Below are positions 11,902-53,551 of a stretch of 64,000 nucleotides of DNA, one piece after another (position 1 is the stretch's first letter; the number at the start of each line of letters is the position of its first letter). The stretch comes from an uncultured Gammaproteobacteria bacterium (GTDB lineage Bacteria > Patescibacteriota > Microgenomatia > UBA8517 > UBA10165), in NCBI GenBank assembly GCA_964472675.1, contig CAYYLO010000004.1:1602-65601 (forward strand), read 5' to 3'. The notes under the pieces are model-generated. The model worked only from the letters and a program-made list of their open reading frames with translations. It had not been told where the DNA came from and made no database searches. Both the position numbers and the translations under genes were made by a program.

Positions 11902-11955
11902 ATTAAATTGCTTGTTAAGCTTCACCTCCTTTCCCTCTGTTAGAGGGCAGATTTC

Positions 11956-12240: not shown

Positions 12241-12272
12241 TTGATTTAACTACAATACTATACTAAATTAGC

Positions 12273-13592: not shown

Positions 13593-13630
13593 CGGTATCG
13601 GCTAAATTCAGATAAAATGAATGAGTTCAA

Positions 13631-14089
13631 ATGTTACTCGCTCCTTCTGTGCTAGCGCTCGTTGGAGTAGGTGTAATTGTTTGGGTTGTTGTAATTACCG
13701 TTTGGCTATGTAGGGTACATTTTCATTACAAAAGGTTAATAGGTGCGACTAACAAAACAGACTTAAAGCTTATATTGGAAGATTTAATAAATAAGGTTGA
13801 CCTTGCAACAAGTGAGGCTCAAAGGATACAGAAAGAATTATCCCAAATGTCAGCAAAAATGGGTAGCTGTTTGCAAAAGGTAGGGGTAATCAGGTTTAAT
13901 CCATACTCAGATACTGGAGGCAACCAATCTTTTGCGCTAGCCTGCTTGAACGAGGCAGATTCGGGGTTGGTTATTTTAAGTCTTCATGGAAGAGAAGGTA
14001 CGCGCGTATACATAAAGGGTGTAAATCGCGGAAAATCAACATCCGGTTTGTCCCGGGAGGAAAAACAAGCAATTGAGGAAGCGCGGTAA
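13631..14089 (+). CDS. DUF4446 family protein
   Basis: An N-terminal TM helix plus the conserved GVIRFNPYSDTGGNQSFALA...LHGREGTRVY block. Confidence 0.55.
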   Translation: MLLAPSVLALVGVGVIVWVVVITVWLCRVHFHYKRLIGATNKTDLKLILEDLINKVDLATSEAQRIQKELSQMSAKMGSCLQKVGVIRFNPYSDTGGNQSFALACLNEADSGLVILSLHGREGTRVYIKGVNRGKSTSGLSREEKQAIEEAR

Positions 14090-36851: not shown

Positions 36852-37559
36852 TTGGAAAAAACTTTAAAAATTGGTTACTATGATATTGCAGTGTTTACAC
36901 GACTTCCCTGGTTTTTGCCTCCTATATTAGTTTTTGCAGCTTTATTCGTACTTTTTAATACTACAACCAATAAATCCGGTTCTATTATTTCCGGTTGTGG
37001 ATTTTCCAACGTTTCTGGCGATTTTGTCTCCAGTCAGACTGCCTACTTTGAGGGCAACAAGGTTTCTGCTCCAAAGCAAGATAACAACATCAAATTAGCC
37101 AAAGTGTTAGGGGCAGAGACAGGAGGGGAAAAATGGATTGAGGTTAATTTAACGGAGCAAAAGTTAATTGCTCATGAGGGCGATAAAGTATTTTTAGAAA
37201 CTAAAATATCTTCAGGCTTTCCCTGGACACCAACTCCGGAGGGAGAATTTACGATCTGGGGTAAGTTCCGCTATACCAAAATGGAGGGTGGATCTGGCAA
37301 ATATTACTATTATTTACCCAACGTTCCTTACGTTATGTTTTTTGAAAATTCTGATGTTGTAGCCAAAAGTGGTTATGGCTTGCATGGAACCTATTGGCAT
37401 AGCGACTTTGGTAAACCGCGTAGCCATGGCTGTGTGAACTTGCCCACATCTATTGCTCAGCAATTGTTTTACTGGACTGGACCGGTTTTACCTTCAGATA
37501 AGGGTACGGTTCGGGCAGGCCCCAATAATCCAGGAACCCGTATTGTCATCCACAAGTGA
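36852..37559 (+). CDS. L,D-transpeptidase (YkuD domain) protein
   Basis: The catalytic HGCVNLP motif (with preceding SHGC) and an N-terminal TM helix. Confidence 0.8.
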   Translation: MEKTLKIGYYDIAVFTRLPWFLPPILVFAALFVLFNTTTNKSGSIISGCGFSNVSGDFVSSQTAYFEGNKVSAPKQDNNIKLAKVLGAETGGEKWIEVNLTEQKLIAHEGDKVFLETKISSGFPWTPTPEGEFTIWGKFRYTKMEGGSGKYYYYLPNVPYVMFFENSDVVAKSGYGLHGTYWHSDFGKPRSHGCVNLPTSIAQQLFYWTGPVLPSDKGTVRAGPNNPGTRIVIHK

Positions 37560-37695: not shown

Positions 37696-40152
37696 ATGGC
37701 TAATGAATTTGACATAAAACAAGCTAAAATCCACACCCTTCCGGTTGTAGCGTTACGTGGTTCTGTTGTTTTTCCTCGTACAGAAAGTATCCTCACCTTC
37801 GGCCGTCCCAAGACAAAAGCTGCTGTTCAGGCAGCATACTCAGGAGACAGATTGTTGGCTATTTTTACTCAAAAAGATGCCAGGATTTCAGATCCTGTAC
37901 CGGATGATTTATACGAAGTAGGAAGTTTGGTCGAAGTTCAACAGATTATGCCGGCTGACGAAGAAATTCATGTACTGGTTATTGGTAAAGCTCGCATTGG
38001 AATTTCAGAAGTCGTGGCGCAAAATCCATTCGCCGTATACAAGGTCCATGTTTTTGAAGAAAACCTGACGACAACAGCAGAAGAAGAAGCCAGAGCACGG
38101 CATTTGGTTGGCTTATTTGAGAAAGCGATTCGTTTGGGAAAGCCTGCCGACGTTCAAACTGTAATGCGACTTTTATCTTCAAAAATTGAAGTGGCAGAGC
38201 TGGTTGACCAAATTGCCTACCTTTTAGACGTCAAAACTCCGCAAAAGCAGGAAATTTTGGAAACTCTCGACCTGTCTACAAGATTGAAAAAAGTTGAAGA
38301 TTTGTTGGGTCGGGAAGTGGGTATCCTGGAACTTGAGCGTACAATTTCTTCTAAAACGCAAAAAAGATTTGAAGAGCAGATGAAGAAAGCGATGCTCAAG
38401 GAGCATCAAAAAACAATTCAACAAGAACTGCGGGGCTTGGGAGAAGATGATGGGGGAGACGAAGAAATTGACGAATTGCGTCGCAAGATAAAAGAAGTTG
38501 GAATGCCGCGCGATGTGCGCAAAAAGGCAGAAAAAGAGCTAAAACGTTTGGTTCAAATGTCTCCTAATCATCCGGAGAGCGGGTATGTCAGGAATTATTT
38601 GGACTGGTTGGTTGAAATGCCCTGGAGTATAAAGTCTTCAAATGACATTTCTTTAAAACAGGCAGGTGCAATTTTGGATAATGACCATTATGCCTTGAAA
38701 AAAACTAAAGAGCGTATTTTAGAATTTTTGGCTGTAATGAAGCTTAAAAGTGAATCGCAAAAAGCTCATGATTCAACTTTGAATACTGAAGAAGAGGCGG
38801 AAACTATGGAAGGTACGCCGACAATACTTTGCTTTATTGGGCCTCCAGGGGTAGGTAAAACTTCAATCGGTCGTTCAATTGCTCATGCTTTGGGCCGGAA
38901 ATTTGTACGTGTTTCGTTGGGAGGAGTGCGCGACGAGGCGGAAATCAGAGGTCACAGGAGAACTTATGTGGGGGCACTGCCTGGAAGAATTATCCAGGGT
39001 ATAAAAAATGCCGGGACAAAAAACCCTGTATTTATGCTGGACGAGATTGACAAACTTGGCAATGACTTTCGGGGAGACCCGTCTTCTGCTCTGTTGGAAG
39101 TCTTGGATCCTGAGCAAAACAGGGAATTCTCAGATCACTATTTGGAAGTACCCTTCGATCTTTCCGAGGTTATGTTTATTTGCACTGGGAATGTTTTGGA
39201 TACTATTCCTCCAGCCTTGAGAGACAGAATGGAGATCATCCGTTTCGTGGGATATACAGAAGACGAAAAGTACAATATTGCCAAAGATTATCTCTGGCCA
39301 AAACAACTTAAAAATCACAGTCTTCCTGAAGATATACAAATTTTTTCTACAGCTTTGCGGGAGATTATAAATAGGTACACGCGCGAAGCAGGCGTTCGGA
39401 ATTTGGAAAGGAATTTAGCGACGATAGCAAGAAAACTTGCCAGAGACATTGCGGAAGGTAAAAAAGGTGTTAAACATGTGGGGAAAGTAGATTTGCACAA
39501 GCTCTTGGGGCCAGCACAGTTTACGTCACTTTTAGCTGAGAAAAAAGATGAAGTCGGAATTTCGACCGGGTTGGCTGTTACTCCCGTAGGGGGAGAAATA
39601 ATTTTTGTGGAGACTGCTCTCATGCCGGGCAAGGGGAAGCTTACTTTAACTGGCCAGCTGGGAGATGTTATGCGCGAATCTGCAATAGCGGCTTTCTCCT
39701 ATGCAAGAAGTCATTCGTCTGATTTGGGCATAAGCGACAAAGTTTCCAAAGTGACTGATGTTCATATTCATGTTCCCGAAGGCGCAGTACCGAAAGACGG
39801 TCCGTCTGCTGGTGTGGCTATGGCAACATCTTTAATTTCAGCTTTAACTGGCACAAAGACCAGGCGAGATGTGGCCATGACTGGAGAGATAACTTTGCGC
39901 GGGAGGGTTATGGAAATTGGTGGGGTTAAAGATAAGGTAATCGCAGCTCATCGAGCCGGGATCAAGACTGTTGTTTTGCCTAAAGATAATCAAAAAGATA
40001 TGGATGACGTACCAGAGAAAGTTAAACGAGATATCAAATTTATTTTCGCTTCGCACCTTGACCAGGTGCTAGAAGTGGCAATCCCCGCTTTTAACCATAA
40101 ACCACATCGTACCCCTTCTGTCCCTATCCCCTCAAGCTACATAGCAGGCTGA
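37696..40152 (+). CDS. lon: ATP-dependent Lon protease
   Basis: LON N-domain, Walker A GPPGVGKTS, and the protease S-K dyad region KDGPSAGVAMATSLISALTG. Confidence 0.95.
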   Translation: MANEFDIKQAKIHTLPVVALRGSVVFPRTESILTFGRPKTKAAVQAAYSGDRLLAIFTQKDARISDPVPDDLYEVGSLVEVQQIMPADEEIHVLVIGKARIGISEVVAQNPFAVYKVHVFEENLTTTAEEEARARHLVGLFEKAIRLGKPADVQTVMRLLSSKIEVAELVDQIAYLLDVKTPQKQEILETLDLSTRLKKVEDLLGREVGILELERTISSKTQKRFEEQMKKAMLKEHQKTIQQELRGLGEDDGGDEEIDELRRKIKEVGMPRDVRKKAEKELKRLVQMSPNHPESGYVRNYLDWLVEMPWSIKSSNDISLKQAGAILDNDHYALKKTKERILEFLAVMKLKSESQKAHDSTLNTEEEAETMEGTPTILCFIGPPGVGKTSIGRSIAHALGRKFVRVSLGGVRDEAEIRGHRRTYVGALPGRIIQGIKNAGTKNPVFMLDEIDKLGNDFRGDPSSALLEVLDPEQNREFSDHYLEVPFDLSEVMFICTGNVLDTIPPALRDRMEIIRFVGYTEDEKYNIAKDYLWPKQLKNHSLPEDIQIFSTALREIINRYTREAGVRNLERNLATIARKLARDIAEGKKGVKHVGKVDLHKLLGPAQFTSLLAEKKDEVGISTGLAVTPVGGEIIFVETALMPGKGKLTLTGQLGDVMRESAIAAFSYARSHSSDLGISDKVSKVTDVHIHVPEGAVPKDGPSAGVAMATSLISALTGTKTRRDVAMTGEITLRGRVMEIGGVKDKVIAAHRAGIKTVVLPKDNQKDMDDVPEKVKRDIKFIFASHLDQVLEVAIPAFNHKPHRTPSVPIPSSYIAG

Positions 40153-40376: not shown

Positions 40377-43300
40377 ATGGACAAGCTAAAACGGATATTA
40401 TCCCTAACGACACTTTTGCTGGTGCTTAGTAACAGTATACTTCCATATTACTCTTCAGCAAATGTGGTTTTTGCACAAGAAGTAAATGCAACACCTGCCG
40501 CTACTTCGGAAGTGGACGAACCACTTCAGACTTCTTCTGCGCCCACACCAACACCAGAACCAACACCTTCTGAAATTCTTACACTAACACCAACACCAAC
40601 TCCTACTCCTGAAACTGAACTTACTCCAATGCCGGCTGAACAAGAAACAACTGACAACGCTCTACCTGCACCAACCCCTACACCTACACTTTCTGTTGAA
40701 CAGACTGTTATTTCCACACCAATCCCAGTGCCTGTGCCTGCACCTGCACCTGTGCTATTAGCTTGGAAGAATATTGATTCAGCAACAGTTGAAACTATGG
40801 ATAATGTAGAAGCTAACAAAGATTACACTGCTCCTCAAAATGATAAGGTGAAAGTTAACTTTACCAAACTTCCTGAGATTGCTGGAAAACTAACTATTAA
40901 AGAAATTAAATTGTCTTCTAGCCAGGTGGAACAGTTGAAAGCTGTTTCAGACACAGCTTATGAAATTACTTCCACTATGGCTAACGGAACATTTAACTAT
41001 GACTTAACCCTGCCTTTATCAGAGCAAGCCAAAGGCAAGAAGCTGGAAGTAAAAACAGCGGAATCGCAAGAAAAGCTGGACAAAGCACAAACTGTTAATG
41101 AGCCAAAAGAGGAAAAAGCGGATACAATTGCTATTAAAGATTTAAACCATTTTACAGTCTTTGTTATTACCACCCCAGATCCTGACACTACTCAAAAAGT
41201 CTTGATTAATGAAGTAGTTCCAAATCCTCTGAATGGGGCAGAATGGATTGAGCTTTTTAATAACAGCACTCAAGCTACAAACTTAGGAGTGGGAAGCGGT
41301 TGGACTATCAGAAATTCTACTGGCGATACCAGGTCTTTAAGCTCCTTAGGCACTGTTACTGCTTCCGGCAGAGTAGTTTTTGAGGCTCCTGCCAATTGGT
41401 TAAGCAATACTGCCCCTGAAACTATTACTCTATCAAATGAGTTAGGAACACCGGTTGATACAGTGACCATATCTTTAACCTCCCCGGGTTTTGTCATTGA
41501 TCATTACCCGCTGGCTAACGAATCAGTTGGAAGAAAAACAGACGGAGTTGCAGAATGGGTCATCTTTACTATTCCCACCAGAGGCACAGCTAATGTTTTG
41601 CCTAAAACGACAACTAGCCTCTCCGAAGCAGGTCCAATTGCCCCTGAAGGTGGTCTTATGGCAGGTTTCCCATCCTGGTACAAAGACTCTAATGGTTTGG
41701 CGCTTGATTTAATGGAAGCAGCTGATGGTTTTGGTATCTCTGATCCAGTTGATCCATCTAATCCATTTTCACAAACTATTGGCTTTAATGCTGAAGGATT
41801 TTGGTGGTCAGCTGAGGCTTCTATTGACCGCCCAGTAGGCACACGCACCATACTGGTGTTGGCAGTTGAGGCTGCCTTTGCCGGAGAAGCAGCAGTTGAT
41901 GGGGAACAATCAGTGCAAAACAGGCTCAGATACAGGATTGATGGACTGGTACCTGGTGAAACCTATACCATTACCCACCCTTTTGGCACTGTGAAAGAAG
42001 TTGCTGAAGATGATGGGACAATCAATGTCACTGATGACATTGGATGCTTTGCCGGAGGAGGAGTGACCTGCAATCAAACAGCTTCCCCTAACTTTGCCAC
42101 AGCTTTGAACGGTCAAGTAGGGCCATTCTTAACCTGGACCACCTTTAATACTAACCCAGCTTTAACTGACCCTCAACTTACTAATCCTGCCAACCCAAAC
42201 AGAAGATATGTTGGTAATCCCACTATTGAACATGAGGTAACAGGCAGCCCAACAGGCAATAACTTCTTCAGAGTCCAAGGCAAGGATGTGGGTGGCCCTG
42301 GAGTTAACCAAATCCAAACCAACTTATTTGCAGTTTCAGGAAGGCTGGCAGATACAAATGCTCCTGTGATTACCCTTTTTGGCAGTAATCCTGTAAATGT
42401 CAATCAAAATGCTTCTTATATTGATGCTGGAGCAAGTGCTTTAGATGATCTGGGCGGTAACTTAACCGGCAATATTGAAGTTAGCGGTTTGCCTGTTGAC
42501 ACTTCTACCATTGGTGTAAAAACAGTCACTTATACTGTAACTGACAGCGCAGGCCGTACATCCCAAGCAACCAGAACTGTTAATGTAGTTAATCTGGTAG
42601 CGGTAGGAGAAGCAGATACTGTTGCTCCCTTAATCACTATACTTGGGGCAAATCCTGCTTTTGTCACTGTTGGCACACCATATACTGATGTTGGAGCAAC
42701 AGCTTTAGATAATGTTGACGGAGATATTACCGGAAGTATTATCACCACGGGTTTGCCGGTTATTACATCAACAGTTGGCACATTTACTGTTACTTATAAT
42801 GTGGCGGATAGCGCAGGTAATGCAGCAATTCTAGCAAAAAGGACTGTTAATGTGGTAGCAGATACTACTGCTCCTGTAATTACTATGCTGGGGTCAAATC
42901 CTGTCAATATCTTTACAGGCGCTGCTTACTCAGATGCCGGAGCCACAGCCTTGGATGATGTTGACGGAGATATTACCGGGAGTATTGTTACTACGGGTTT
43001 GCCTGTCGATACGTCAAAAGCAGCTACTTTTACCATTACTTATGAAGTAGTTGATTCAGCTGGCAATCCTGCCATTGCAAAAAGAACAGTTAAGGTAGCA
43101 GAAACTTTGCCCGCCAGCCTCTCCGAAGCAGGTCCAATTGCCCCTGAAGGTGGTCTTATGGCAGGTTTCCCATCCTGGTACAAAGACTCTAATGGTTTGG
43201 CGCTTGATTTAATGGAAGCAGCTGATGGTTTTGGTATCTCTGATCCAGTTGATCCATCTAATCCATTTTCACAAACTATTGGCTTTAATGCTGAAGGATT

Positions 43301-45812
43301 TTGGTGGTCAGCTGAGGCTTCTATTGACCGCCCAGTAGGCACACGCACCATACTGGTGTTGGCAGTTGAGGCTGCCTTTGCCGGAGAAGCAGCAGTTGAT
43401 GGGGAACAATCAGTGCAAAACAGGCTCAGATACAGGATTGATGGACTGGTACCTGGTGAAACCTATACCATTACCCACCCTTTTGGCACTGTGAAAGAAG
43501 TTGCTGAAGATGATGGGACAATCAATGTCACTGATGACATTGGATGCTTTGCCGGAGGAGGAGTGACCTGCAATCAAACAGCTTCCCCTAACTTTGCCAC
43601 AGCTTTGAACGGTCAAGTAGGGCCATTCTTAACCTGGACCACCTTTAATACTAACCCAGCTTTAACTGACCCTCAACTTACTAATCCTGCCAACCCAAAC
43701 AGAAGATATGTTGGTAATCCCACTATTGAACATGAGGTAACAGGCAGCCCAACAGGCAATAACTTCTTCAGAGTCCAAGGCAAGGATGTGGGTGGCCCTG
43801 GAGTTAACCAAATCCAAACCAACTTATTTGCAGTTTCAGGAAGGCTGGCAGATACAAATGCTCCTGTGATTACCCTAAATGGTTCTAACCCGGTTGAAGT
43901 GACCCAAAATGAAGCTTATGCTGACAGCGGCGCAACCGCAATTGATAATTTTGATGGTAATCTGACAGCCAGTATTGTAACGACTGGTTTGCCGGTTAAT
44001 ACCTCTGTAATAGGCGTAAAAACCATTACCTATACTGTTTCTGACAGGGCCGGCAATACTGCTATTGCTCAAAGAACTATTAATGTAGTGGCAGCTACCC
44101 CTCCAACTCCAGAACCTCCAGTTCCTCCTGTCCCAGCAGACGGTGCAGGGCAAGCAGATACAACATCTTTAGATGGGTTTTCCTCAACTACTAAGGGGTC
44201 TTATAAAACAGGAGACTTGATAGATATCACTGCTAATTTTGATAAGACTTTAGATGCAGAAAGCACCATGACAGTTGAACTAAGTAATGGTGTCCAAGTT
44301 ATCTTAAGCCAAGTTTCCGGATCAAAGTTAACAGGTACATATATTGTTGGGACAAATATTTCAGAAAACTCTGATAATTTAACTGTAGCAAAAATAATCT
44401 CCAGTAGTATTCAAGCTTCAGACACATTGCCTTCAATAAACTTAAGCAGCATTGTTGTTAATGTCAAAACTTCTGCAGAAGCTGCTGATAAGTCAGGCCA
44501 GGCTGATGTAAATAGTTTGTTGGAACTGGACAGTGAGACTGTTTTAGACATGGGTAGTAATTTAAGTACAGCCACAATAGAAGGCGCAATCACTATTGCT
44601 GGTTTGTCAAAACTGCTAAGTATATTTTCTAATGGTGATCTGGTGAATCAAAATCTAACCTTACCTCAAATTATTGGTGATAAATTGGTTATGGTAAGTA
44701 AGGCAGTCAGGTTAAACTCCGGCCCTAGTGGTTCATTGATTACCTTATCCAATAAAAACCTGTCAACTGTTAAGTTGTCTATAGTAAGTGGAACAACAGT
44801 ATTAGGAGAAAGTAGCTGGAACGGCAAGGTCAATCCTCCTTCTATTGTTACAAATACTGGTATTGCGCCTAGCGGGTTCAAACTCGGTGATTTTGCAATT
44901 GAGGTAGGTTATCCGGAAGGAATCCTGCTTTTTGACCAATCAGTAACCATCCTTTTATCAGGCGTCAATGGCCCTGTCGGATATAAACCCTCAGGCTCTG
45001 ACACTTGGGTTAAGATGGCAAATTGCTTGGGCACTTTTGACAGTCCGCTTAAGCCAGTTTTCCCTGGGGAATGCGCAATTTCTAATGGGGCAGACACCAA
45101 AATCTATACATATCATTTAACTTCTTTTGCCAATTTACAGGAAATTCCCCCTGTTTCCATCCCAACCCCAACACCAGCTATTGTAGTAGCAAGCTCATCT
45201 AATACAGACACTAACACTAATACAACTTCATCCAATTCTAATCTCTCTAATTCTTCCTCAAACAATACTTCTAACAATCCTTCCACTCCTGTTTGTACTG
45301 ATTCCAAGCCAGGCAGTGCTCCTATCTTGCTTTCTGCCGTCACCAGCGGTCCTAACCAGGTGACCTTAACCTGGTCAAAAGCATCTGATCCTGTTTCCCA
45401 TTATTCCATAGTTTATGGCTTGTCGGCAGGCAATCCTATTTATGGAAATACTAATGTTGGGGGGAAGGATACTACCTCATATGCAGTTGGCGGTTTGTCT
45501 GGCGGAACAACTTATTACTTCAAAGTCAGGGCAGGCAATGGTTGTAATGGCAGTGAATATTCAAATGAACTGTCTGCCGCACCGGACGGAGGAACAATAA
45601 ATAGTCCTGCAACAGGATTTACCCGGGGGTTATTGGGTGCTCAGACTGAAGAAGAAACGAAGACTAGCGAGCCTGGAGTCTTAGGTGTCAATGTAAATGG
45701 GCTTGCTTCAAAGAGCAAAGGAACCTGGGCAATACAGCTAATGTTGGCAGCTTTAGCAGCTTTGGGTGTTGGTTATTTTAAGTTCTTTTACAGGAAAAAA
45801 TTAAATGGGTAG
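40377..45812 (+). CDS. Giant secreted multidomain surface protein (1811 aa). Domain order: signal peptide, PT-rich linker, lamin-tail domain, a duplicated unknown domain, Ig-like (DUF5011-type) repeats, an SNT-rich linker, a two-Cys FN3-like module, and a C-terminal TM anchor.
   Basis: - Signal peptide: MDKLKRILSLTTLLLVLS.
- Lamin-tail motif: VLINEVVPNPLNGAEWIELFNNS...GW.
- Ig-like repeats: APVITLxGSNPV...Y.DAGATA.D..DG(D/N)(I/L)TG.I...GLPV.TS..G...VTY.V.DSAGN.
- C-terminal TM helix AIQLMLAALAALGVGYF followed by KFFYRKK. Confidence 0.85.
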   Translation: MDKLKRILSLTTLLLVLSNSILPYYSSANVVFAQEVNATPAATSEVDEPLQTSSAPTPTPEPTPSEILTLTPTPTPTPETELTPMPAEQETTDNALPAPTPTPTLSVEQTVISTPIPVPVPAPAPVLLAWKNIDSATVETMDNVEANKDYTAPQNDKVKVNFTKLPEIAGKLTIKEIKLSSSQVEQLKAVSDTAYEITSTMANGTFNYDLTLPLSEQAKGKKLEVKTAESQEKLDKAQTVNEPKEEKADTIAIKDLNHFTVFVITTPDPDTTQKVLINEVVPNPLNGAEWIELFNNSTQATNLGVGSGWTIRNSTGDTRSLSSLGTVTASGRVVFEAPANWLSNTAPETITLSNELGTPVDTVTISLTSPGFVIDHYPLANESVGRKTDGVAEWVIFTIPTRGTANVLPKTTTSLSEAGPIAPEGGLMAGFPSWYKDSNGLALDLMEAADGFGISDPVDPSNPFSQTIGFNAEGFWWSAEASIDRPVGTRTILVLAVEAAFAGEAAVDGEQSVQNRLRYRIDGLVPGETYTITHPFGTVKEVAEDDGTINVTDDIGCFAGGGVTCNQTASPNFATALNGQVGPFLTWTTFNTNPALTDPQLTNPANPNRRYVGNPTIEHEVTGSPTGNNFFRVQGKDVGGPGVNQIQTNLFAVSGRLADTNAPVITLFGSNPVNVNQNASYIDAGASALDDLGGNLTGNIEVSGLPVDTSTIGVKTVTYTVTDSAGRTSQATRTVNVVNLVAVGEADTVAPLITILGANPAFVTVGTPYTDVGATALDNVDGDITGSIITTGLPVITSTVGTFTVTYNVADSAGNAAILAKRTVNVVADTTAPVITMLGSNPVNIFTGAAYSDAGATALDDVDGDITGSIVTTGLPVDTSKAATFTITYEVVDSAGNPAIAKRTVKVAETLPASLSEAGPIAPEGGLMAGFPSWYKDSNGLALDLMEAADGFGISDPVDPSNPFSQTIGFNAEGFWWSAEASIDRPVGTRTILVLAVEAAFAGEAAVDGEQSVQNRLRYRIDGLVPGETYTITHPFGTVKEVAEDDGTINVTDDIGCFAGGGVTCNQTASPNFATALNGQVGPFLTWTTFNTNPALTDPQLTNPANPNRRYVGNPTIEHEVTGSPTGNNFFRVQGKDVGGPGVNQIQTNLFAVSGRLADTNAPVITLNGSNPVEVTQNEAYADSGATAIDNFDGNLTASIVTTGLPVNTSVIGVKTITYTVSDRAGNTAIAQRTINVVAATPPTPEPPVPPVPADGAGQADTTSLDGFSSTTKGSYKTGDLIDITANFDKTLDAESTMTVELSNGVQVILSQVSGSKLTGTYIVGTNISENSDNLTVAKIISSSIQASDTLPSINLSSIVVNVKTSAEAADKSGQADVNSLLELDSETVLDMGSNLSTATIEGAITIAGLSKLLSIFSNGDLVNQNLTLPQIIGDKLVMVSKAVRLNSGPSGSLITLSNKNLSTVKLSIVSGTTVLGESSWNGKVNPPSIVTNTGIAPSGFKLGDFAIEVGYPEGILLFDQSVTILLSGVNGPVGYKPSGSDTWVKMANCLGTFDSPLKPVFPGECAISNGADTKIYTYHLTSFANLQEIPPVSIPTPTPAIVVASSSNTDTNTNTTSSNSNLSNSSSNNTSNNPSTPVCTDSKPGSAPILLSAVTSGPNQVTLTWSKASDPVSHYSIVYGLSAGNPIYGNTNVGGKDTTSYAVGGLSGGTTYYFKVRAGNGCNGSEYSNELSAAPDGGTINSPATGFTRGLLGAQTEEETKTSEPGVLGVNVNGLASKSKGTWAIQLMLAALAALGVGYFKFFYRKKLNG
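41616..43876. repeat. Perfect 761-nt direct repeat (41616-42376 and 43116-43876) with a 1500-nt period inside giant gene 1
   Basis: Line-by-line comparison shows 100% identity over 761 nt. It encodes a duplicated ~250-aa domain (LSEAGPIAPEGG...NAPVITL). The antisense ORF pairs 41504-41851/43040-43351 and 41910-42116/43410-43616 are artefacts of this repeat. Confidence 0.9.
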
Positions 45813-48800
45813 AAAAGTCTTATCAGCATTTTTGATTTTAGTTGTTGTTTTTTCGAATGGATTTTTAACTTTGGCACAGATTGCTTTAGCTGCTCCAACT
45901 GGTGAAAATAAAACGTTTTATTTTCGAAACCAAAGTGCGCAGTTGCCCAGTAGCCATGTTTTAAGTACCACTGCTCCAACTTCAGGAAATTCTCAAAACA
46001 CTTCCATAACCAGCACTGACTCTCCATCATTCCGGCATTTTCATCCGGGAATAACCAGTTTTCAACATATTTTTGCTACTGAACCAGCTCATACCTTGCC
46101 AGTTGACTTGGCCTCATGGATTTCTGATGTGCCTCTTGATGGTACTTTCCAGGCAGGCAGCTGGAAATTTATAGTACACAAAAACGACAATATCAAAGGG
46201 GAAGTCTCAGTCCCCCATTTTAATGTTTACAAAAGTCCCAGCAATACCAGTTTGGATCAGGCAACTTTTCTTTTTGATGTGGAAGGGCCTGACTGGTGGA
46301 CATCAAGCGATGAGCAGCTTAATTTTTCTACACCCTTACTTAGCCAATTTGAATTTAATAATGCATATTTGGTAGTGCAGCTTTTTGACCAATGCAAATC
46401 AGGTTGTAACGGTGGGAAAATTATGACAGTTTTTGAAGATGGCACGTCTGCTGCTACCCAAACCAGGATAGAAACACCATTATTTGTCCCAGCTGGCAGC
46501 AATGAACCTGTGCCCCCGCCTTCTGCCCCAGCTCCAGAACCTTCTGCACCTCAACCTCCAACCCCCCCTGCAGATATTACTGCCCCTATAATCACTATTT
46601 TGGGAGATAGTCCTGTAACAGTCTTTTTAGGCTCTACTTATATAGATGCTGGTGCTACCGCCATTGATAATATTGACGGTGCTATTTCTGTTGAGACAAC
46701 CAATGCAGTGAATACTGCTGTTTTAGGAGGATATTCTGTAATTTACAAGGCTACTGATAGCGCAGGTAATACTAGTGTTCCTGCTATCAGGACTGTGAAT
46801 GTGGTAGCACCACCAGCCCCAGTGCTTCCACCTCCAGCTCCTATTGTACCTCCTTTACCTCCCTTAGATACCATTGCTCCTGTAATAACTATGCTTGGCT
46901 CATCTCCTTTAGATGTGACAATTGGCTCTGTATACAACGATGCCGGAGCTACAGCTTTGGATAATATAGATGGTGATCTGGCTGCTAAGATTAGTGCTTC
47001 CGGATTACCTATTAATACTGCTAGTGCAGGAACATTTACCATTACTTATAATGTGGCGGATAGCGCAGGCAATACTGCCACACCTGTTACTAGAATTGTG
47101 AATGTGATAGCAGCCCCAGAAGAACCAGCTGCCCCAGCTCCAGAGCCTCCTCCACCTCCAGTCCAACCTTCTGCTCCTAAAAACTCCCCTCCAGTGGTGG
47201 AACCTATCCCTTCTCAAACCATTACGGTTGGGACTCCAGTCTCCTTTAAAGTAATAGCTACTGACACGGATGGGGACGCCTTAACTTACTCTTTAGGCCC
47301 TAATGCTCCATTGGGTGCGACAATTGATCCTAAGACAGGCGCTTTTTTTTGGCTACCGCAAGTTGTAGGCACAACAAATTTTGATATTCTGGTTTCTGAT
47401 GGAGTTAATACTCCGGTTACAACTGGCCACTTGATTGAAAACCGGAACTTAGGAGTTGATGGCATTTTAGGCACAGCAGACGATATTTTCATTGGTGGCA
47501 TGGCTACTTGGGGGATGGTCAAGGCTCAAGCGCGGGACTTTTTAGGCATATTGTTAGATGATTTAGATGTGCTCGACTTGCCACTTTTGGCAACTGACGC
47601 GTATGGCAATTTTATCAAAGGCCCGAATGGTTTTCCACAGCTGGTGATTGATGGCGGTTTACTAGAAGGTAATCCAGCCTCCCCTGTTGATGCCTCAAAA
47701 GCAGTCCGGACCCACCATCCATTTATAGTAGATATCAGCCACAATGCTAATCCTGTTAACTCGCGGGGTGTGCCTCTTAAAGCTGATTCGGATAATGTGA
47801 TTGGACTATCTGAACCAGGCACATATGACAATGAGTTGTTGGATGCGCATTTTATGGCCGGAGACGGTCGTGTTAATGAAAATATTGGCTTAACAGCAGT
47901 CCACCATATTTTTCATTCTGAGCACAACAGGTTGGTGGAGTACGCTAAAAATGTGATACTGGATACAGGTGATTTAGCTTTTTTAAGCCAATGGTTAGTA
48001 GCAGGTAGTGCACCAGATACTTTTCCTCAAACACCTCAAGAAATTACTGCTTTGTCTTGGAATGGGGAACGGTTGTTTCAGGTGGCTAAATTTGGTACGG
48101 AAATGCAATACCAACATTTGGTGTTTGAGGAATTTGCCCGCAAAGTTTCCCCGCAAGTCAATATATTTTCAGGCTATGACAATAGCATTGATCCGGCCAT
48201 TATGGCTGAATTTGCCCACACAGTCTATCGTTTTGGCCACAGTTTGTTAACTGACACCGTTGCGCGTACTAATGAGGATGGCACCACCAATGACATTGGT
48301 TTAATACAGGCCTTCTTAAACCCATTAGAGTTTGTAGCAAGCGGGGATACGCCCATTAAGGCTGCAGGCGCTATTGTTTCAGGCATGGTTAACCAGGTTG
48401 GCAATGAGATTGACGAATTTGTCACAGAATCTTTGCGAAGTAACTTGTTAGGTCTGCCTTTGGATTTGGCTACTATTAATTTAGCCCGGGGACGGGATAC
48501 TGGTGTTCCTCCGCTGAACTCAGCCAGAAAGCAATTTTTTATGGCGACTGGTGGAGATTCGTCTTTAAAGCCATATACCAGCTGGGTAGATTTTGGTTTA
48601 AATATTAAACACCCCCTCTCCCTAATAAATTTTATTGCAGCATATGGCACACATCCGACTGTTTTAAATGCAGCCAGCTTACAAGAAAAACGTGCGGCGG
48701 CTGCTTTGTTAGTTGATGGAGGAGAAGGCGCGCCAGAAGATAGAGTGGATTTCCTAAACAGCACTGGTAATTGGGTTAGTACTGGTTTAGATACTGTTGA

Positions 48801-51800
48801 CTTTTGGATCGGTGGTTTAGCGGAAAAACAAATGCCTTTTGGGGGGCTTTTAGGCCCTACCTTTAATTTTGTGTTTGAGACCCAAATGGAAAAACTGCAA
48901 GATGGAGATAGATTTTATTACCTATTCAGAAATGCCGGCTTAAACTTTTTAACTTCTCTTGAGCAAAACTCCTTTGCAGAATTGGTGATGAGAAACACTG
49001 AAGGCGTCAAGCACACGCCACATGATATTTTTTCGCATCCGGCTTTTACTATTGAAGCTGCCGATATTGATCCTTTGAACCCGGCAACGTTTCCGCCTGA
49101 CACAATTATTATGCCTGATGGCACTATCCGCTACACAGGGGTGGAGCATATTGTGATGGGAGGTACAGCGGGTAATGATAAACTGCATTCATCTGAAGGC
49201 GATGATACTCTTTGGGGAGATGAGGGTAATGATAGGCTGGAAGGTGGAGCAGGCAATGATGCAATTTTGGGCGGTGCAGGTGATGATATTTTAACTGATA
49301 TTTTTGGCGATGATAATATTAAAGGCGGCGAAGGCAATGATGTGATCAACGCAGGAGTTGGCATTGATCTGATTTTAGGAGGGGATGGCCAGGATTTTGT
49401 GGTGGCAGGCAGGGATTCAAAAGAGACTTTTGGAGGGGCTGGTAATGATTTTATTATAGCAGGAGACGGAGCTGATACAGTGTTTGGCAATGAGGGGGAT
49501 GATTGGATTGAAGGCGGTGACCAGGCGGATTTATTGCAGGGTGATAATGGCGATCCTTTCCAAAGCTCACCCACCATTGGCAATGACGTGATCATAGGCG
49601 GCGGGGGCAATGATGATTATGACTCAGAATCCGGCGATGATATTATGCTGGCCGATCCGGGCATTGAACGGAACGAAGGCATGCTTGGTTTTGACTGGGT
49701 GATATACAAAAATGATCCGCAGCCTGCCAATGCAGATATGTTTATTACAGGCTTGTTGCCGCCAACAGTAAATGATTTGCGTGACCGGTTTGATTTGGTT
49801 GAAGGCTTGTCCGGAGGCAGCCTTGACGATATTTTAAGGGGCGATAACCGCACCAGTGTTGGTTTTTTGGACCATGCTTTAAATAACCCTGCCCAAATTG
49901 CTTTGATTAACGGGTTACAAAATTTGCTGGGGGATGGGGTGAGCTCATTTTCAGGAGGAAATATCATATTGGGCGGAGCGGGTAGTGACGTAATTGAGGG
50001 TCGGGGCGGTGATGACCTGATTGATGGTGATGCCTGGCTGAATGTGCGTTTAAGTGTGGGGGATATTAGTGCAGACAGTATGACAGAACTTCAAACTGCC
50101 ATGTTTGAAGGCAAAATAAATCCCGGACAAATAAAAATTATCCGCGAGATATTAACCTCCCAAACAGAAGATGACATTGATACAGCAGTTTTTTCAGGTA
50201 ATCTGGCTGATTACACCATCAGTCAGCCAGATGCTCTAGGTAGGATTACAGTAACAGATAATAGGAGAGAAGATGGAGGAGGAGGCAGAACTAGTGATGG
50301 TACAGATACCCTTCGCAACATTGAACGCTTGCAGTTTGCTGACCAGACTATAGATTTAAATAAGTCAAACAAAGTATCAGCTCCCGCCCTAGTAGATAAG
50401 ATCTCTGAGCCAGGTGTTAGTAATTTGAGATCAGGAGTAGGTTTGACCTTGATTAGGTCTGATCTGCAGTTTATTTTGGATCAGATTAAAATTGCCGAAG
50501 CTCATGCTCAAGGTGCGTTCTTGTCCGGCCTAATCCCCAAAGACGTTTTACCTTGGGGTTTGCGGACAGTTGATGGGACTTTCAATAACATTGTGTCCAA
50601 TCAATCTGAGTTTGGGGCGGCAGACAGGGTATTCCCCCGCCTGACCACACCAGTTTTTAGAAATGCGGAAAATGCAACTTTTGATTTGGATGGGCCAGGC
50701 CCTTTAACTTTAGGCCAGCCAACCTCTTATGCTCAAAATAACGGTTTTGTGTTTGACTCGCAACCCCGCTTGATCAGCAATTTAATTGTTGATCAAACCT
50801 TGGGCAATCCTGCTGCTCAAGCCGCCAGTGCGTTTAGCTTACCTGACCCACAAACTAATAGTTTATTTATCCCAAACATAGCTCCTGATATGGGATTGTC
50901 TGCATCTTTTAATTCCTGGTTTACCTTGTTTGGACAGTTTTTTGATCATGGGTTGGATTTAGTCAACAAAGGCGGTAGCGGTACAGTATTTATCCCGCTT
51001 GCTACTGATGACCCGCTTTTTAACCCTGCCAGCCCGTCTAATTTCATGGTTTTAACAAGAGCAACAAACCAACCTGGCCCGGATGGCGTGTTAGGCACAT
51101 TGGATGATATTCATGAACACACAAACCAAACATCTCCTTTTATTGACCAAAATCAAACTTACACCTCACATCCTTCACATCAGGTATTCCTCCGTTCATT
51201 TAATTTTAGACCGGCTAACAGTTTGTCAGTTTTGGCAAATATAACAGTTGCTCCAAAGATTTTCTCTGTTTTTGGACAAGGCAAGTTTACTTCCACAAAT
51301 GGGCAAACTATTACACCTAAAGTTGTTTCCCAGGGAATCTCTGTTGTTTCAGTGGAAGACGGCGGGGGAATACATTCTGTGACTGTACCGGATGGAACAG
51401 AGATTACCAAAAGCAATGGCAAAGACATCGATATCACTGCCTTAACAGCAGCGGTGCCTGCTATAGATTCCTTAACAGGAATGAATAAAGGAGTGGTGGT
51501 TAATGGCAAGTTGCAATGGGGGATTCCCAACCAGGGGTTGTTGTTTAGTAACCCAATTTCACTGGATATATTTGTTGGTACTGATTTAAATGGTCAGACT
51601 TTGGATGTGCTGCGTTCTGAAACTGGTACTGGTAATTGGACCAATGAGGGAATTGTGGCCCCTGCAACTTGTTTAGTGGCAAATGGCATGTGTACATTTC
51701 AGGCCACAAAAGCCTCAGTTTATATAGCTGCTCAAACTGTAGCTAGTGCTGGGGGAACAATTGGCAATGCTTCCCCAACAGATAACAATAATAGTAATAA

Positions 51801-52440
51801 TACACCCACGAACACATCTAATACAGCCACTAACACTAATACAATTTCATCCAGTTCTAATTCCTTTAACTCTTCCTCAAGTAACGGTTCCTCCACCCCT
51901 TCTAACGCTTCTGCTCCTGTTTGTACTGATTCCAAGCCAGGTAGTGCTCCTAAGTTACTTTCTGCCATAGTTACCGGTCCCAACCAGGTAACTTTAAGTT
52001 GGTCTAAGGCCCAAAATCCTGCAACCTATTACTTAGTAGCTTATGGAACTTCTTCTGAGAATCTACAATTTGGTAATCCTAACGTGGGTGGAGCTGATAC
52101 TACTTCATATGTGGTTAATGGCTTGTCCGGCGGAACGGCTTATTACTTTAAGGTTAGAGCTGGGAACAACTGCATGCCGGGAGAATTTTCCAATGAGTTG
52201 CCTGCAACAGTTGACGGAAGCGTAATTAGGCAGCCCGCCTCAGGGTTTACTGAAGGTGTGTTGGGAGTTAAAAAGGAAACACTCGACAACCCAACAATCG
52301 ACAAACCTGCTCTTGCTCCTACAACTTCCGAAAGTCGAAAGAACAGGATTTTCCAACTAACTTTAGCAGCGATGGTCTTATTAGCTATATCCTATGGTCT
52401 TTTTTATCGCCTTGCTAAAAGAGTAAGCCGACGGTTGTAA
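45805..52440 (+). CDS. Giant secreted multidomain protein (2211 aa). Domain order: signal peptide, Ig-like (DUF5011-type) x2, cadherin-like/He_PIG domain, animal-heme-peroxidase (peroxidase-cyclooxygenase superfamily) domain, RTX hemolysin-type Ca-binding repeats, an N-terminal-type peroxidase segment, an SNT-rich linker, a two-Cys FN3-like module, and a TM anchor. The 8-nt overlap with giant gene 1 suggests translational coupling.
   Basis: - Signal peptide: MGRKVLSAFLILVVVFS.
- Ig-like repeats: APIITILGDSPV, APVITMLGSSPL.
- Cadherin-like: PSQTITVGTPVSFKVIATDTDGDALTYSL.
- Peroxidase motifs: GDGRVNENIGLTAVHHIFHSEHNRLV (Arg/Glu heme-link motif), RFGHSLL (proximal His), LARGRDTGVP, VDFWIGGLAE, GDRFYY.
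- RTX nonapeptides: GGAGNDAILGGAGDDIL, GGEGNDVINAG, GGAGNDFIIAGDGADTVFGNEGDDWIEGG.
- After the RTX block: TVDGTFNN and FGQFFDHGLD (distal His), SPFIDQNQTYTS (Ca loop).
- C-terminus: TM helix plus basic tail. Confidence 0.85.
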   Translation: MGRKVLSAFLILVVVFSNGFLTLAQIALAAPTGENKTFYFRNQSAQLPSSHVLSTTAPTSGNSQNTSITSTDSPSFRHFHPGITSFQHIFATEPAHTLPVDLASWISDVPLDGTFQAGSWKFIVHKNDNIKGEVSVPHFNVYKSPSNTSLDQATFLFDVEGPDWWTSSDEQLNFSTPLLSQFEFNNAYLVVQLFDQCKSGCNGGKIMTVFEDGTSAATQTRIETPLFVPAGSNEPVPPPSAPAPEPSAPQPPTPPADITAPIITILGDSPVTVFLGSTYIDAGATAIDNIDGAISVETTNAVNTAVLGGYSVIYKATDSAGNTSVPAIRTVNVVAPPAPVLPPPAPIVPPLPPLDTIAPVITMLGSSPLDVTIGSVYNDAGATALDNIDGDLAAKISASGLPINTASAGTFTITYNVADSAGNTATPVTRIVNVIAAPEEPAAPAPEPPPPPVQPSAPKNSPPVVEPIPSQTITVGTPVSFKVIATDTDGDALTYSLGPNAPLGATIDPKTGAFFWLPQVVGTTNFDILVSDGVNTPVTTGHLIENRNLGVDGILGTADDIFIGGMATWGMVKAQARDFLGILLDDLDVLDLPLLATDAYGNFIKGPNGFPQLVIDGGLLEGNPASPVDASKAVRTHHPFIVDISHNANPVNSRGVPLKADSDNVIGLSEPGTYDNELLDAHFMAGDGRVNENIGLTAVHHIFHSEHNRLVEYAKNVILDTGDLAFLSQWLVAGSAPDTFPQTPQEITALSWNGERLFQVAKFGTEMQYQHLVFEEFARKVSPQVNIFSGYDNSIDPAIMAEFAHTVYRFGHSLLTDTVARTNEDGTTNDIGLIQAFLNPLEFVASGDTPIKAAGAIVSGMVNQVGNEIDEFVTESLRSNLLGLPLDLATINLARGRDTGVPPLNSARKQFFMATGGDSSLKPYTSWVDFGLNIKHPLSLINFIAAYGTHPTVLNAASLQEKRAAAALLVDGGEGAPEDRVDFLNSTGNWVSTGLDTVDFWIGGLAEKQMPFGGLLGPTFNFVFETQMEKLQDGDRFYYLFRNAGLNFLTSLEQNSFAELVMRNTEGVKHTPHDIFSHPAFTIEAADIDPLNPATFPPDTIIMPDGTIRYTGVEHIVMGGTAGNDKLHSSEGDDTLWGDEGNDRLEGGAGNDAILGGAGDDILTDIFGDDNIKGGEGNDVINAGVGIDLILGGDGQDFVVAGRDSKETFGGAGNDFIIAGDGADTVFGNEGDDWIEGGDQADLLQGDNGDPFQSSPTIGNDVIIGGGGNDDYDSESGDDIMLADPGIERNEGMLGFDWVIYKNDPQPANADMFITGLLPPTVNDLRDRFDLVEGLSGGSLDDILRGDNRTSVGFLDHALNNPAQIALINGLQNLLGDGVSSFSGGNIILGGAGSDVIEGRGGDDLIDGDAWLNVRLSVGDISADSMTELQTAMFEGKINPGQIKIIREILTSQTEDDIDTAVFSGNLADYTISQPDALGRITVTDNRREDGGGGRTSDGTDTLRNIERLQFADQTIDLNKSNKVSAPALVDKISEPGVSNLRSGVGLTLIRSDLQFILDQIKIAEAHAQGAFLSGLIPKDVLPWGLRTVDGTFNNIVSNQSEFGAADRVFPRLTTPVFRNAENATFDLDGPGPLTLGQPTSYAQNNGFVFDSQPRLISNLIVDQTLGNPAAQAASAFSLPDPQTNSLFIPNIAPDMGLSASFNSWFTLFGQFFDHGLDLVNKGGSGTVFIPLATDDPLFNPASPSNFMVLTRATNQPGPDGVLGTLDDIHEHTNQTSPFIDQNQTYTSHPSHQVFLRSFNFRPANSLSVLANITVAPKIFSVFGQGKFTSTNGQTITPKVVSQGISVVSVEDGGGIHSVTVPDGTEITKSNGKDIDITALTAAVPAIDSLTGMNKGVVVNGKLQWGIPNQGLLFSNPISLDIFVGTDLNGQTLDVLRSETGTGNWTNEGIVAPATCLVANGMCTFQATKASVYIAAQTVASAGGTIGNASPTDNNNSNNTPTNTSNTATNTNTISSSSNSFNSSSSNGSSTPSNASAPVCTDSKPGSAPKLLSAIVTGPNQVTLSWSKAQNPATYYLVAYGTSSENLQFGNPNVGGADTTSYVVNGLSGGTAYYFKVRAGNNCMPGEFSNELPATVDGSVIRQPASGFTEGVLGVKKETLDNPTIDKPALAPTTSESRKNRIFQLTLAAMVLLAISYGLFYRLAKRVSRRL

Positions 52441-52456
52441 GCCTACTAATAAGAAT

Positions 52457-52478
52457 ATACAACCCGTTTCAAAACTCG
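52457..52478. repeat. Right copy of the 22-nt motif ATACAACcCGTTTCAAAACTCG, 17 nt after the giant gene 2 stop
   Basis: See the left copy at 40153-40174. Confidence 0.7.
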
Positions 52479-53551
52479 TGCGTCAATTTACTTTTCAAAA
52501 AGGGGTTGTTAGAATAGTTTTAATGGAAGCTCCATCAGCAGTATCGGATAGACCTATACTTTACAAACCAACTGATACGGAACTTGCCAGGGAATCGGTA
52601 GAGGAAGCAGGAATAAGATATTTTGCTGCACTGGCAAGCTTGGCTAGAACTCCAGAAGAGCTGCGCGCATTAGTTCGTCTTCATGCGCAAAAAGCAGCAG
52701 AAGCTGGCGGTCCGGTTTTGGGTGAAGTTTTAACTGGATTCTCTGAAGAATTATCAAGTGCTTCTCAACCTGTATTAGAAGAACCGGAAGGCACTCCAAC
52801 ACTAGAAAAAAGAACTGTGCAAACGCCTATGGGGGAACTTACTCTTTATCCTCAAAGAAAAGAAGCAGCCTCCCCTCTTCTTCCAAAAGAAAAGGGGGCA
52901 GTTAGGTTGCCTGATGTAGTATTTGAAATACTAGAAACTCTTGCGAAAGATCCGCGTGTCGTAGTTAACTATGAAGACTTAATTAAAAATGTCTGGAAAT
53001 ATGAAAGCTATAATAAGAAAACAGACCTGTCAATGGTAAGAACCCGAGTATATGTTCTTCGCCAATTATTAGGAGATAGCGGAGAAGGTGTGGCTTCTGC
53101 AAGAAAATTCAAATTTATTCACACCTTTGAAGAAGGTATTTCTTTAACAGATCATCTTACTGTTGACCAAATTATCCGCCTAACCCCACAGGAAAGAAAA
53201 GATTTACATATTGCAAGCGCTACTATTCCTGGAAGAAATAGACAGCCAAAACAAGTGTTTCTTGATGCCGCACGGGGAATTGCAATTGTGCCAGATTCGG
53301 CAACAAACCCATATAAATATTTGTCAACGCTGGAAGCCGATGTCCTGGAAGCATTGATGCGTCATCCACAATCTATACTTCCCAAAGATATGTTTATTAA
53401 TATTATAGAAAAACACGGATATATCTCAAAGACAGACGATAAAACATCTGCTTTAAAAGCACTTGTGTATCGTTTAAGACAAAAGCTGGAAGAGGATCTT
53501 CCAATTTATACTATTGATAATGGCCATACGCTTACAGAAAGAATGCATTAA
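52478..53551 (+). CDS. Tandem OmpR/PhoB-type winged-helix (trans_reg_C) DNA-binding protein with no receiver domain. ATG at 52523 is the likely real start; the GTG at 52478 overlaps the repeat motif.
   Basis: There are two copies of the trans_reg_C pattern: VRLPDVVFEILETLAKDPRVVVNYEDLIKNVWKYESYNKKTDLSMVRTRVYVLRQLL and ...LSTLEADVLEALMRHPQSILPKDMFINIIEKHGYISKTDDKTSALKALVYRLRQKLEE. No D-box/receiver motifs are present. Confidence 0.55.
   Translation: MRQFTFQKGVVRIVLMEAPSAVSDRPILYKPTDTELARESVEEAGIRYFAALASLARTPEELRALVRLHAQKAAEAGGPVLGEVLTGFSEELSSASQPVLEEPEGTPTLEKRTVQTPMGELTLYPQRKEAASPLLPKEKGAVRLPDVVFEILETLAKDPRVVVNYEDLIKNVWKYESYNKKTDLSMVRTRVYVLRQLLGDSGEGVASARKFKFIHTFEEGISLTDHLTVDQIIRLTPQERKDLHIASATIPGRNRQPKQVFLDAARGIAIVPDSATNPYKYLSTLEADVLEALMRHPQSILPKDMFINIIEKHGYISKTDDKTSALKALVYRLRQKLEEDLPIYTIDNGHTLTERMH

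Follow-up and report, generated by a model that had tools for sequence, protein, structure and literature searches.

The analysed DNA (referred to as the window) is a stretch of 64,000 nucleotides (nt) of contig CAYYLO010000004.1 (assembly GCA_964472675.1, positions 1,602 to 65,601) from an uncultured bacterium of groundwater, and it contains a gene for a cell-surface protein in which the two parts of a heme peroxidase domain are encoded in reverse order and are separated by an RTX block. The part that includes the proximal heme ligand is called the C-part in the following, and the part that includes the distal His is called the N-part. The product of 2211 amino acids (aa) is identical to the NCBI protein P0001, which stems from a metagenome-assembled genome (MAG) of Candidatus Blackburnbacteria, a member of the Microgenomates group of the Patescibacteria or Candidate Phyla Radiation (CPR). 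The positions of all features are compiled in Table 1.

A Pfam analysis gave no family match for aa ~31-255, which lie behind the hydrophobic N-terminus. The next region harbors two DUF5011 domains; the best PF16403 stretch comprises aa 361-434, while the span of the other domain was taken from the translation. The Big_9/He_PIG-type immunoglobulin-like (Ig-like) domain directly adjoins the new N-terminus of the C-part. The C-part contains a PERCAL motif, the distal residues Arg689 and Glu692, the proximal His812, Asn892, and the motifs RGRD and DRFYY. The N-part contains TVDGTFNN, the distal residues Gln1711-Asp1714-His1715, a second PERCAL motif and the Ca loop, and it ends at …SHQVFLRSF. The two parts are linked by a connector of ~475 aa. 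Its first half is the RTX block, for which AlphaFold2 predicted regular short strands with a predicted local distance difference test (pLDDT) score of >90, and which was matched by Foldseek to the RTX domain of CyaA (7rah_E). Its second half is a beta-rich module (pLDDT ~90), which is present behind the RTX block in all family members. This post-RTX module belongs to no Pfam family, and its similarity to NCBIfam entries is weak and far under the cut-off. In the spacer and linker behind the N-part no peroxidase sequence was found, neither with Pfam nor in an alignment of N-part ends.

Table 1. Features of the peroxidase gene and of the gene upstream of it. Nucleotide positions refer to the window, residues to the encoded protein (HMM, hidden Markov model; PDB, Protein Data Bank; ORF, open reading frame).
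Feature	Position (nt)	Strand	Residues (aa)	Basis or remark
Whole gene, cell-surface protein with permuted peroxidase	45805..52440	+	2211 in total	uninterrupted single ORF
Signal-peptide-like hydrophobic N-terminus	45805..45894	+	1-30	translation, by inspection
Two Bact_surface_Ig-like (DUF5011) domains	46576..47106	+	~258-334 and 357-434	Pfam PF16403, E=2.1e-32, 2 stretches
Big_9/He_PIG-type Ig-like domain	47182..47418	+	460 to ~537	PF17963 aa 460-536; PF24908 aa 468-541
Peroxidase C-part	47419..49059	+	539-1085	HMM and PDB coordinates; approximately Pfam model positions 175-530
PERCAL motif GVDGILGTADD	47452..47484	+	550-560	regular expression; just past the new N-terminus of the C-part
PFIVDISHN			639-647	motif search
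GDGRVNE	47860..47880	+	686-692	distal Arg689 and Glu692 (heme ester link in animal peroxidases)
RFGHS	48229..48243	+	809-813	proximal heme ligand His812
RGRD			895-898	in C-part
DRFYY			1035-1039	in C-part
RTX nonapeptide block, predicted beta-roll	49060..49809	+	1086-1335	Pfam PF00353, 6-7 HemolysinCabind stretches
Post-RTX beta-rich module	49810..50484	+	1336-1560	conserved in collinear, tandem and permuted homologues
Peroxidase N-part	50485..51201	+	1561 to ~1799	HMM and PDB coordinates; model positions 2-174
TVDGTFNN			1588-1595	in N-part
FGQFFDHGLD, distal His motif	50929..50958	+	1709-1718	
Second PERCAL motif GPDGVLGTLDD			1758-1768	regular expression; in N-part
SPFIDQNQTYTS, true Ca-binding loop	51133..51168	+	1777-1788	
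Beta-rich spacer and Ser/Asn/Thr-rich linker	51202..51942	+	1800-2046	no Pfam match
Fibronectin type III (FN3) domain	51943..52203	+	2047-2133	Pfam PF00041, E=2e-10
C-terminal hydrophobic membrane anchor, then basic tail	52348..52407	+	2182-2211	inspection
Upstream gene, surface protein with 4 DUF5011, LTD, HYR, FN3 and membrane anchor	40377..45812	+	1811 in total	

Order of the catalytic parts

The whole protein was matched by the Pfam model An_peroxidase (PF03098, 530 positions) with 210 bits (gathering cut-off 25) and E=7.3e-62. In the first peroxidase segment, aa 681-913 correspond to model positions 208-418 and aa 995-1076 to positions 446-530, while in the second segment aa 1587-1800 correspond to positions 2-174. 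Analyzed alone, the first segment (600 aa) yielded E=1.1e-52 and 179.8 bits, and the second segment yielded E=1.2e-10 and 41.1 bits. The two parts are complementary on the model, with zero overlap and in swapped order, and a collinear N-to-C match to PF03098 was not found in the 2211-aa protein. The original prediction, which had proposed a split or circularly permuted peroxidase, had expected model positions of ~150-530 followed by ~1-170, and this came very close to the observed 208-530 (aa 681-1076) and 2-174 (aa 1587-1800). The same arrangement was found with the solved structure that is closest by sequence, PDB 8s6c_A (528 aa, single-domain, deposited as "Lactoperoxidase"), where residues 192-505 align with the C-part and residues 4-162 with the N-part. 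The two parts account for nearly the whole of this structure, which is collinear and lacks both the RTX block and a family-specific insertion of ~100 aa, which is located behind the Ca loop and ahead of the distal Arg helix.

The catalytic residues of heme peroxidases, as defined by their motifs (PMC4420034), are all present across the two parts, namely the distal Gln-x-x-Asp-His, the distal Arg-x-x-Glu, and the proximal His with its Asn partner. Each part occurs once, the two together cover the catalytic domain in full, and the canonical order is found in relatives, as is expected for a circular permutant. Other peroxidase copies or pieces were not found elsewhere in the 64-kb window. It is therefore proposed, with a probability of roughly three in four, that the protein is a long peroxicin with a single circularly permuted catalytic domain, which has an RTX block between its parts, and that these parts would form one heme pocket. 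The long peroxicins are Family 5 of the peroxidase-cyclooxygenase superfamily; they have duplicated peroxidase domains with PERCAL and hemolysin-type Ca motifs, and their physiological role is unknown (PMC4420034).

All eight motifs quoted in the original prediction were recovered at their positions by a motif search of the translation, but one had been misread. PFIVDISHN had been taken for a Ca-loop-like motif, yet collinear relatives hold the true Ca loop, TxPFVDQNQTYTSH, and ~100 residues further on the motif AFLDDIAHxAxP within the family-specific insertion. PFIVDISHN thus represents the family motif (A/P)F(L/I)xDI(A/S)HxAxP downstream of the true Ca loop, and its assignment as a second Ca loop was rejected, since both motifs occur in the collinear relatives. 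The segment borders also had to be revised: the C-part really starts at aa 539 (nt 47419, TTGHLIENRNLG...), and the N-part ends at about aa 1799 (nt 51201).

Conservation, relatives and origin of the permuted form

A homologue search in 5.8 billion proteins revealed seven further permuted proteins (P0002, P0003, P0004, P0007, P0008, P0024, P0025), which are 60-87% identical and stem from different samples, with assemblies taken from NCBI, ENA and Logan. Counting the protein of the window, the eight have 60-100% identity and were recovered from four separate sources or assemblies. The order was checked on the DNA of the relatives, and each locus contained one set of C-part, RTX block, post-RTX module and N-part, with no extra peroxidase pieces within up to 10 kb of flanking DNA. 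One of the permuted proteins sits on an archaeal contig of 243 kb, and the same protein was found on 12 more contigs of 10-20 kb. P0024 and P0025 are minimal versions, which consist of a signal-like sequence, the C-part (from …TG(R/S)LIENRNLG), the RTX block, the post-RTX module and the N-part, and the stop codon follows 5-9 residues past …SHPSHQVFLR.

The cut site is identical in 8/8 permuted proteins. At this position the collinear relatives have the sequence …SHPSHQVFLR(E/A)Y-[~6-10 variable residues]-(A/S)TG(R/K/H)L…, and this comparison indicates that the domain was opened in one variable loop and that only this loop was lost. Judged from the alignment, the new ends are in a variable surface loop ~12 residues past the Ca loop, and only ~6-10 linker residues are missing. 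No variation was found among the eight permuted proteins at Q1711, D1714, H1715, R689, E692, H812, N892, R895 and R897, and practically all of ~111 other copies agree with them. The ratios of non-synonymous to synonymous substitution rates (dN/dS) were determined with the method of Nei-Gojobori in comparison to the two nearest orthologues; versus more distant ones, the synonymous sites were saturated. They were 0.065 and 0.072 for the C-part, 0.130 and 0.047 for the N-part, 0.095 and 0.062 for the RTX block, and 0.118 and 0.096 for the post-RTX module. According to these values both peroxidase parts are under purifying selection.

These results bear on the question of whether the gene is real. 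The sequence is part of a MAG, and a 100% identical internal repeat in the neighboring gene shows that the region is repeat-rich, so that a contig that is chimeric or was misassembled, or a tandem gene that was called as one ORF despite truncation or a frameshift, had to be considered; the original prediction had also raised a possible misjoin at 49.1-50.5 kb. However, the same order and the same junctions are present in the seven further proteins of independent assemblies from different samples, including the 243-kb archaeal contig, the ORF is uninterrupted and has proper N- and C-terminal targeting sequences, and neither the window nor the flanks of the other loci contain spare peroxidase pieces. 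Due to the independent assemblies, the intact ORF and the low dN/dS, the misassembly and pseudogene readings were rejected, and an artefact is effectively refuted. A further alternative had been that the parts are two complementary degenerate copies. Two diverged half-copies were also rejected, because the Big_9/He_PIG domain precedes the C-part, and a stop codon or unrelated beta-rich or FN3 domains follow the N-part. As these flanks are recognizable unrelated domains or a stop codon, there is no room for diverged missing halves. Taken together, the invariant residues, the low dN/dS and the unrelated flanks or stop codon rule out a decaying remnant, a misassembly and two degenerate copies. 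A circular permutation split by the RTX block, as originally proposed, is thus borne out by complementary HMM coordinates, one precise cut, eight proteins, purifying selection and invariant residues.

The nearest collinear relatives are 53-64% identical; they are large "peroxidase family proteins" with RTX repeats, which occur in Proteobacteria, Actinobacteria and Myxococcota. The collinear relatives are annotated as peroxidase family or RTX proteins and include proteins of Pseudomonas, Nitrosomonas and Methylococcaceae. The permuted order is rare. In the 120 best homologues, the collinear order N-part, C-part, post-RTX module was found 90 times and the permuted order 8 times, and tandem proteins or tandem fragments make up most of the remaining 22. 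A survey of 185,579 species-representative genomes was also performed, and its 80 best loci comprised 19 collinear single-domain genes, 1 permuted gene (Woesearchaeota) and 47 complete tandem genes, in which the N-part, C-part and post-RTX module are present twice in succession; the other 13 were mostly longer or cut-off arrays. The two-domain genes (47/80) were nearly all found in Pseudomonas and close relatives. In addition, a census of 1.84 billion cluster representatives was performed using HMMER with a query of 1200 aa, which resulted in 8005 relatives (E<=1e-30). When the best 150 of these were inspected, a match to the query in a single collinear stretch was limited to the clusters of P0003 and P0008. 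A homologue search with the post-RTX module and the N-part as query exclusively yielded short fragments of <800 aa.

P0271 was considered as an additional permuted member and was rejected; it starts within the C-part and has 232 residues more behind, and thus it most likely represents a piece of a tandem gene. In another homologue, the collinear P0021 from a Pseudomonadota MAG, an Ala-rich low-complexity insertion of ~500 aa (aa ~150-700) is located in the N-part before the distal His motif, showing that the N-part region tolerates very large insertions in other lineages, too.

In neighbor-joining trees the eight permuted proteins formed one clade, with bootstrap values of 190/200 for the C-part and 153/200 for the N-part in a first data set, and of 199/200 and 194/200, respectively, in a second data set. 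Because the clade was obtained with both parts, a single origin of the permuted form is indicated. In the first data set it adjoined a group that is rich in two-domain proteins. Tandem proteins with the order N-C-RTX-post-N-C-RTX-post hold the order C-RTX-post-N internally. Duplication followed by trimming is the classical route to circular permutation, and a tandem ancestor that lost its first N-part as well as everything past its second N-part would have acquired the C-RTX-post-N order. The relatives fit permutation by duplication and trimming, but this likely route is inferred, as the trees did not assign the parts to the first or the second domain. The tandem relatives (P0009, P0019 and others; loci L008-L080) have an Ig-like domain of ~120-150 aa, which is located behind the post-RTX module and ahead of the second peroxidase domain, while the permuted clade lacks it and has a short linker between the post-RTX module and the N-part. 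DNA methyltransferases and swaposins are the textbook circular permutations that are credited to duplication and trimming. The case described here resembles them in the complementary swapped parts, in ends that lie in a surface loop, and in extant tandem relatives that contain the permuted order. It differs in how the old termini are connected, namely not via a short linker but via two complete folded modules that bind Ca and stem from the inter-domain region of the tandem.

Characterized long peroxicins are PepA/PehA (PP_2561) of P. putida, a two-domain, extracellular, heme-dependent peroxidase (PMC3396595, PMC9518985), the domains of which are heme-dependent peroxidases that bind Ca2+ (PMC3396595, PMC9518985), and MopA, which oxidizes Mn(II) and requires heme and Ca2+ (PMC6247904). 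The long bacterial peroxicins, of which PepA/PehA and the MopA proteins of Erythrobacter and Aurantimonas are examples, are 55-61% identical to the permuted protein over the C-part, the RTX block and the post-RTX module, with a similar level over the N-part. The shared features include the catalytic residues, PERCAL motifs within the domain (two exact ones in the permuted protein; consensus G-x-D-G-x-x-[GN]-[TN]-x-D-D, PMC3396595), the DIAHxAxP insertion, and the order of RTX block and post-RTX module. In contrast, the catalytic order is permuted in the protein described here, and its RTX block is internal, whereas that of the long peroxicins is near the C-terminus. The known long peroxicins start straight in the peroxidase domain at about residue 16, while the permuted proteins have a signal-like N-terminus. 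Furthermore, the fusion to the surface domains DUF5011, Big_9 and FN3 is unlike known long peroxicins, and the hosts are different, i.e., CPR bacteria and a DPANN archaeon for the permuted form versus Proteobacteria or Actinobacteria for the known long peroxicins.

Proposed assembly of the two parts

Outside of the cell, the C-part and the N-part would pack into one heme pocket, and the ~475-residue Ca2+-binding RTX/post-RTX module would serve as connector, linking the ancestral C-terminus to the ancestral N-terminus. The enzyme would then act on the surface of an episymbiont, either a CPR bacterium or a DPANN archaeon, and catalyze oxidations that depend on heme and Ca2+. By analogy with the relatives, candidate reactions are the removal of H2O2 and the oxidation of Mn(II) or halides. 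By inspection, the protein deviates from the pattern of a type I secretion substrate: the RTX block comprises aa 1086-1335 of 2211, the anchor is C-terminal, and the N-terminus is signal-like. Like in the family, the RTX block follows the C-part, but it is located between the catalytic parts and is ~875 aa away from the C-terminus. The collinear relatives, in contrast to the membrane-anchored permuted protein, have RTX-rich tails, which fit type I secretion. Export is thus probably of the Sec type and not of type I, as the RTX block is internal, the N-terminus is signal-like and the protein ends in an anchor.

Mature myeloperoxidase and mature eosinophil peroxidase have the same fold and consist of a light and a heavy chain, as is also reflected in the PDB chain names. 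Since mature myeloperoxidase is a two-chain enzyme, a break of the backbone between the segment with the distal His and the rest of the domain is tolerated by this fold. In both cases a small piece with the distal His is separated from a large piece with the Arg/Glu motif and the proximal His. A Foldseek search matched the model of the C-part best to the heavy chains of myeloperoxidase and eosinophil peroxidase (1mhl_C, 7qzr_B, 8ogi_B) with a template modeling (TM) score of ~0.52. The break in myeloperoxidase is made by proteolysis after folding and lies ahead of the Ca loop. In contrast, the break in the permuted protein is genetic and lies ~12 residues past the Ca loop, and the gene encodes its pieces in reverse order, with a covalent link between them via the ~475-aa connector.

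Several observations weigh against a reassembly of the two parts into one pocket and against the proposed history. Two AlphaFold2 runs were performed. The first, with aa 598-1797 and an alignment of 60 rows, yielded pLDDT values of 25-66 for the N-part and a predicted TM score (pTM) of 0.62, while the RTX block and the post-RTX module were predicted confidently and the C-part was patchy. The second made use of a hand-built alignment with a depth of ~60 for the N-part, ~19 for the C-part and ~10 for the RTX block, and it was worse than the first run, with pLDDT values of 30-71 for the N-part and 57.8 overall, and a pTM of 0.41. The block-mean pLDDT of the N-part was mostly <60 and never >71 in the two runs, and several segments of the C-part that are expected to face the N-part also had a low pLDDT. 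As both runs left the N-part with low confidence, they give no structural support yet for a reassembly, in cis or otherwise. CPR bacteria are generally devoid of heme synthesis. The sequence distances lean marginally to a descent of the C-part from the first domain and of the N-part from the second domain (0.467 vs 0.488; 0.435 vs 0.455). In the ancestor, there was no need for the connector to bring C1 and N2 into contact. Lastly, the sister group of the permuted clade is unstable, and it is often a single-domain protein.

One possibility is that the permutation is real and that the parts assemble in trans, in domain-swapped dimers or surface arrays in which one molecule contributes the C-part and a neighboring molecule the N-part, because a stiff RTX connector would keep the parts of the same chain apart. 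The connector of ~475 residues is indeed predicted to be a rigid beta-roll plus beta module with pLDDT >90, the same connector links parts of different domains in the tandem relatives, and AlphaFold left the parts undocked in cis. The failure of AlphaFold can, however, be explained by shallow paired alignments, and the loss of the ~120-150-aa Ig-like domain, which left a short linker, suggests an adaptation for folding back. Assembly in trans is regarded as rather unlikely. It is even less probable that the parts are no longer a peroxidase and persist as structural or binding modules, as leftovers of different ancestral domains. The low AlphaFold confidence for the N-part and the usual lack of heme synthesis in CPR bacteria would fit such a view, but every residue of the heme pocket is invariant in eight permuted proteins that differ by up to 40%, and dN/dS is equally low in the N-part and the C-part. 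In addition, each part is an incomplete piece of one all-helical fold, which is unlikely to be stable alone. The sequence evidence thus argues strongly against the view that the parts do not assemble at all, and a common heme pocket formed by the C-part and the N-part of the permuted domain is the preferred interpretation.

RTX blocks are disordered at the low Ca2+ concentration of the cytoplasm and are folded only at extracellular Ca2+ levels. The RTX/post-RTX module is the sole covalent link between the two halves of the pocket, and therefore Ca2+-driven folding would join the halves, in cis or between molecules. It is tempting to speculate, although the odds are rather low, that the permutation created a natural calcium-gated split peroxidase, which would bind heme and produce oxidants only after export, and that this module was passed between CPR bacteria and DPANN archaea within a surface-protein cassette.

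Neighboring genes, hosts and implications

The end of the upstream gene overlaps the start of the peroxidase gene by 8 nt, and thus the two genes are probably co-transcribed. A giant DUF5011/Big_2 surface-protein gene adjoins the permuted peroxidase gene in the window and at the loci L082 and L084. In the upstream gene of the window, 300 nt or more (41616-41915 and 43116-43415) are repeated directly with 100% identity, and in its protein a block of ~250 aa (SEAGPIAPEGGLMAGFPSWYKDSNGL…) is present twice. Either the gene underwent an internal duplication very recently, or the assembly produced an artefact in this gene, which is rich in repeats. The ends of the two giant genes (45196-45538 and 51815-52166) are 72-81% identical at the nucleotide level, and they share a module that consists of a Ser/Asn/Thr-rich linker, a conserved Cys, an FN3 domain and a membrane anchor. 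The module looks like a shared cassette for cell-surface anchoring that can be exchanged.

Directly downstream of the peroxidase gene, a protein of 357 aa with a Trans_reg_C (OmpR-type DNA-binding) domain is encoded (52478-53551, +). The arrangement is repeated at the closest orthologous locus (L085, 9033-10079), and the protein may be a conserved regulator. Upstream of the pair of surface-protein genes are the genes for a YkuD-type L,D-transpeptidase (36852-37559, +) and a Lon protease (37696-40152, +), which are ordinary housekeeping genes with no evident link to the permuted peroxidase.

The permuted protein from the 243-kb contig, P0004, is 70% identical to the protein of the window. It is encoded at positions 10001-14443 of locus L082 (JACPCV010000003.1, 169794-194236) in a groundwater Woesearchaeota MAG. 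The neighboring genes are clearly archaeal, i.e., they encode a TFIIS-type zinc ribbon protein, NMD3, an archaeal CCA-adding enzyme, an RPB9-type ribbon protein, and SMC. The location of a permuted orthologue among archaeal genes points to a transfer of the gene between CPR bacteria and DPANN archaea of the same groundwater habitats.

The permutation is a real rearrangement of a well-known enzyme fold, and apparently it has been undescribed; a full-text literature search for a circularly permuted heme peroxidase or member of the peroxidase-cyclooxygenase superfamily yielded no report, and the matches were unrelated papers. The peroxidase-cyclooxygenase fold, which includes myeloperoxidase, lactoperoxidase and cyclooxygenase, is among the best-studied enzyme folds. 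As permuted, collinear and tandem forms are all extant, the family offers a clean natural case for permutation by duplication, and also a case in which the tolerance of a large helical heme fold to re-threading can be studied. The permuted cut marks a loop at which the fold can be opened, which is useful for the design of split or switchable peroxidases. For the organisms, the finding would place what is probably an extracellular oxidative enzyme on ultra-small episymbionts of the CPR and DPANN groups, which are thought to be devoid of heme synthesis, and the 70% identity across the divide between bacteria and archaea raises questions about heme scavenging, oxidative interactions with hosts, and inter-domain gene transfer.

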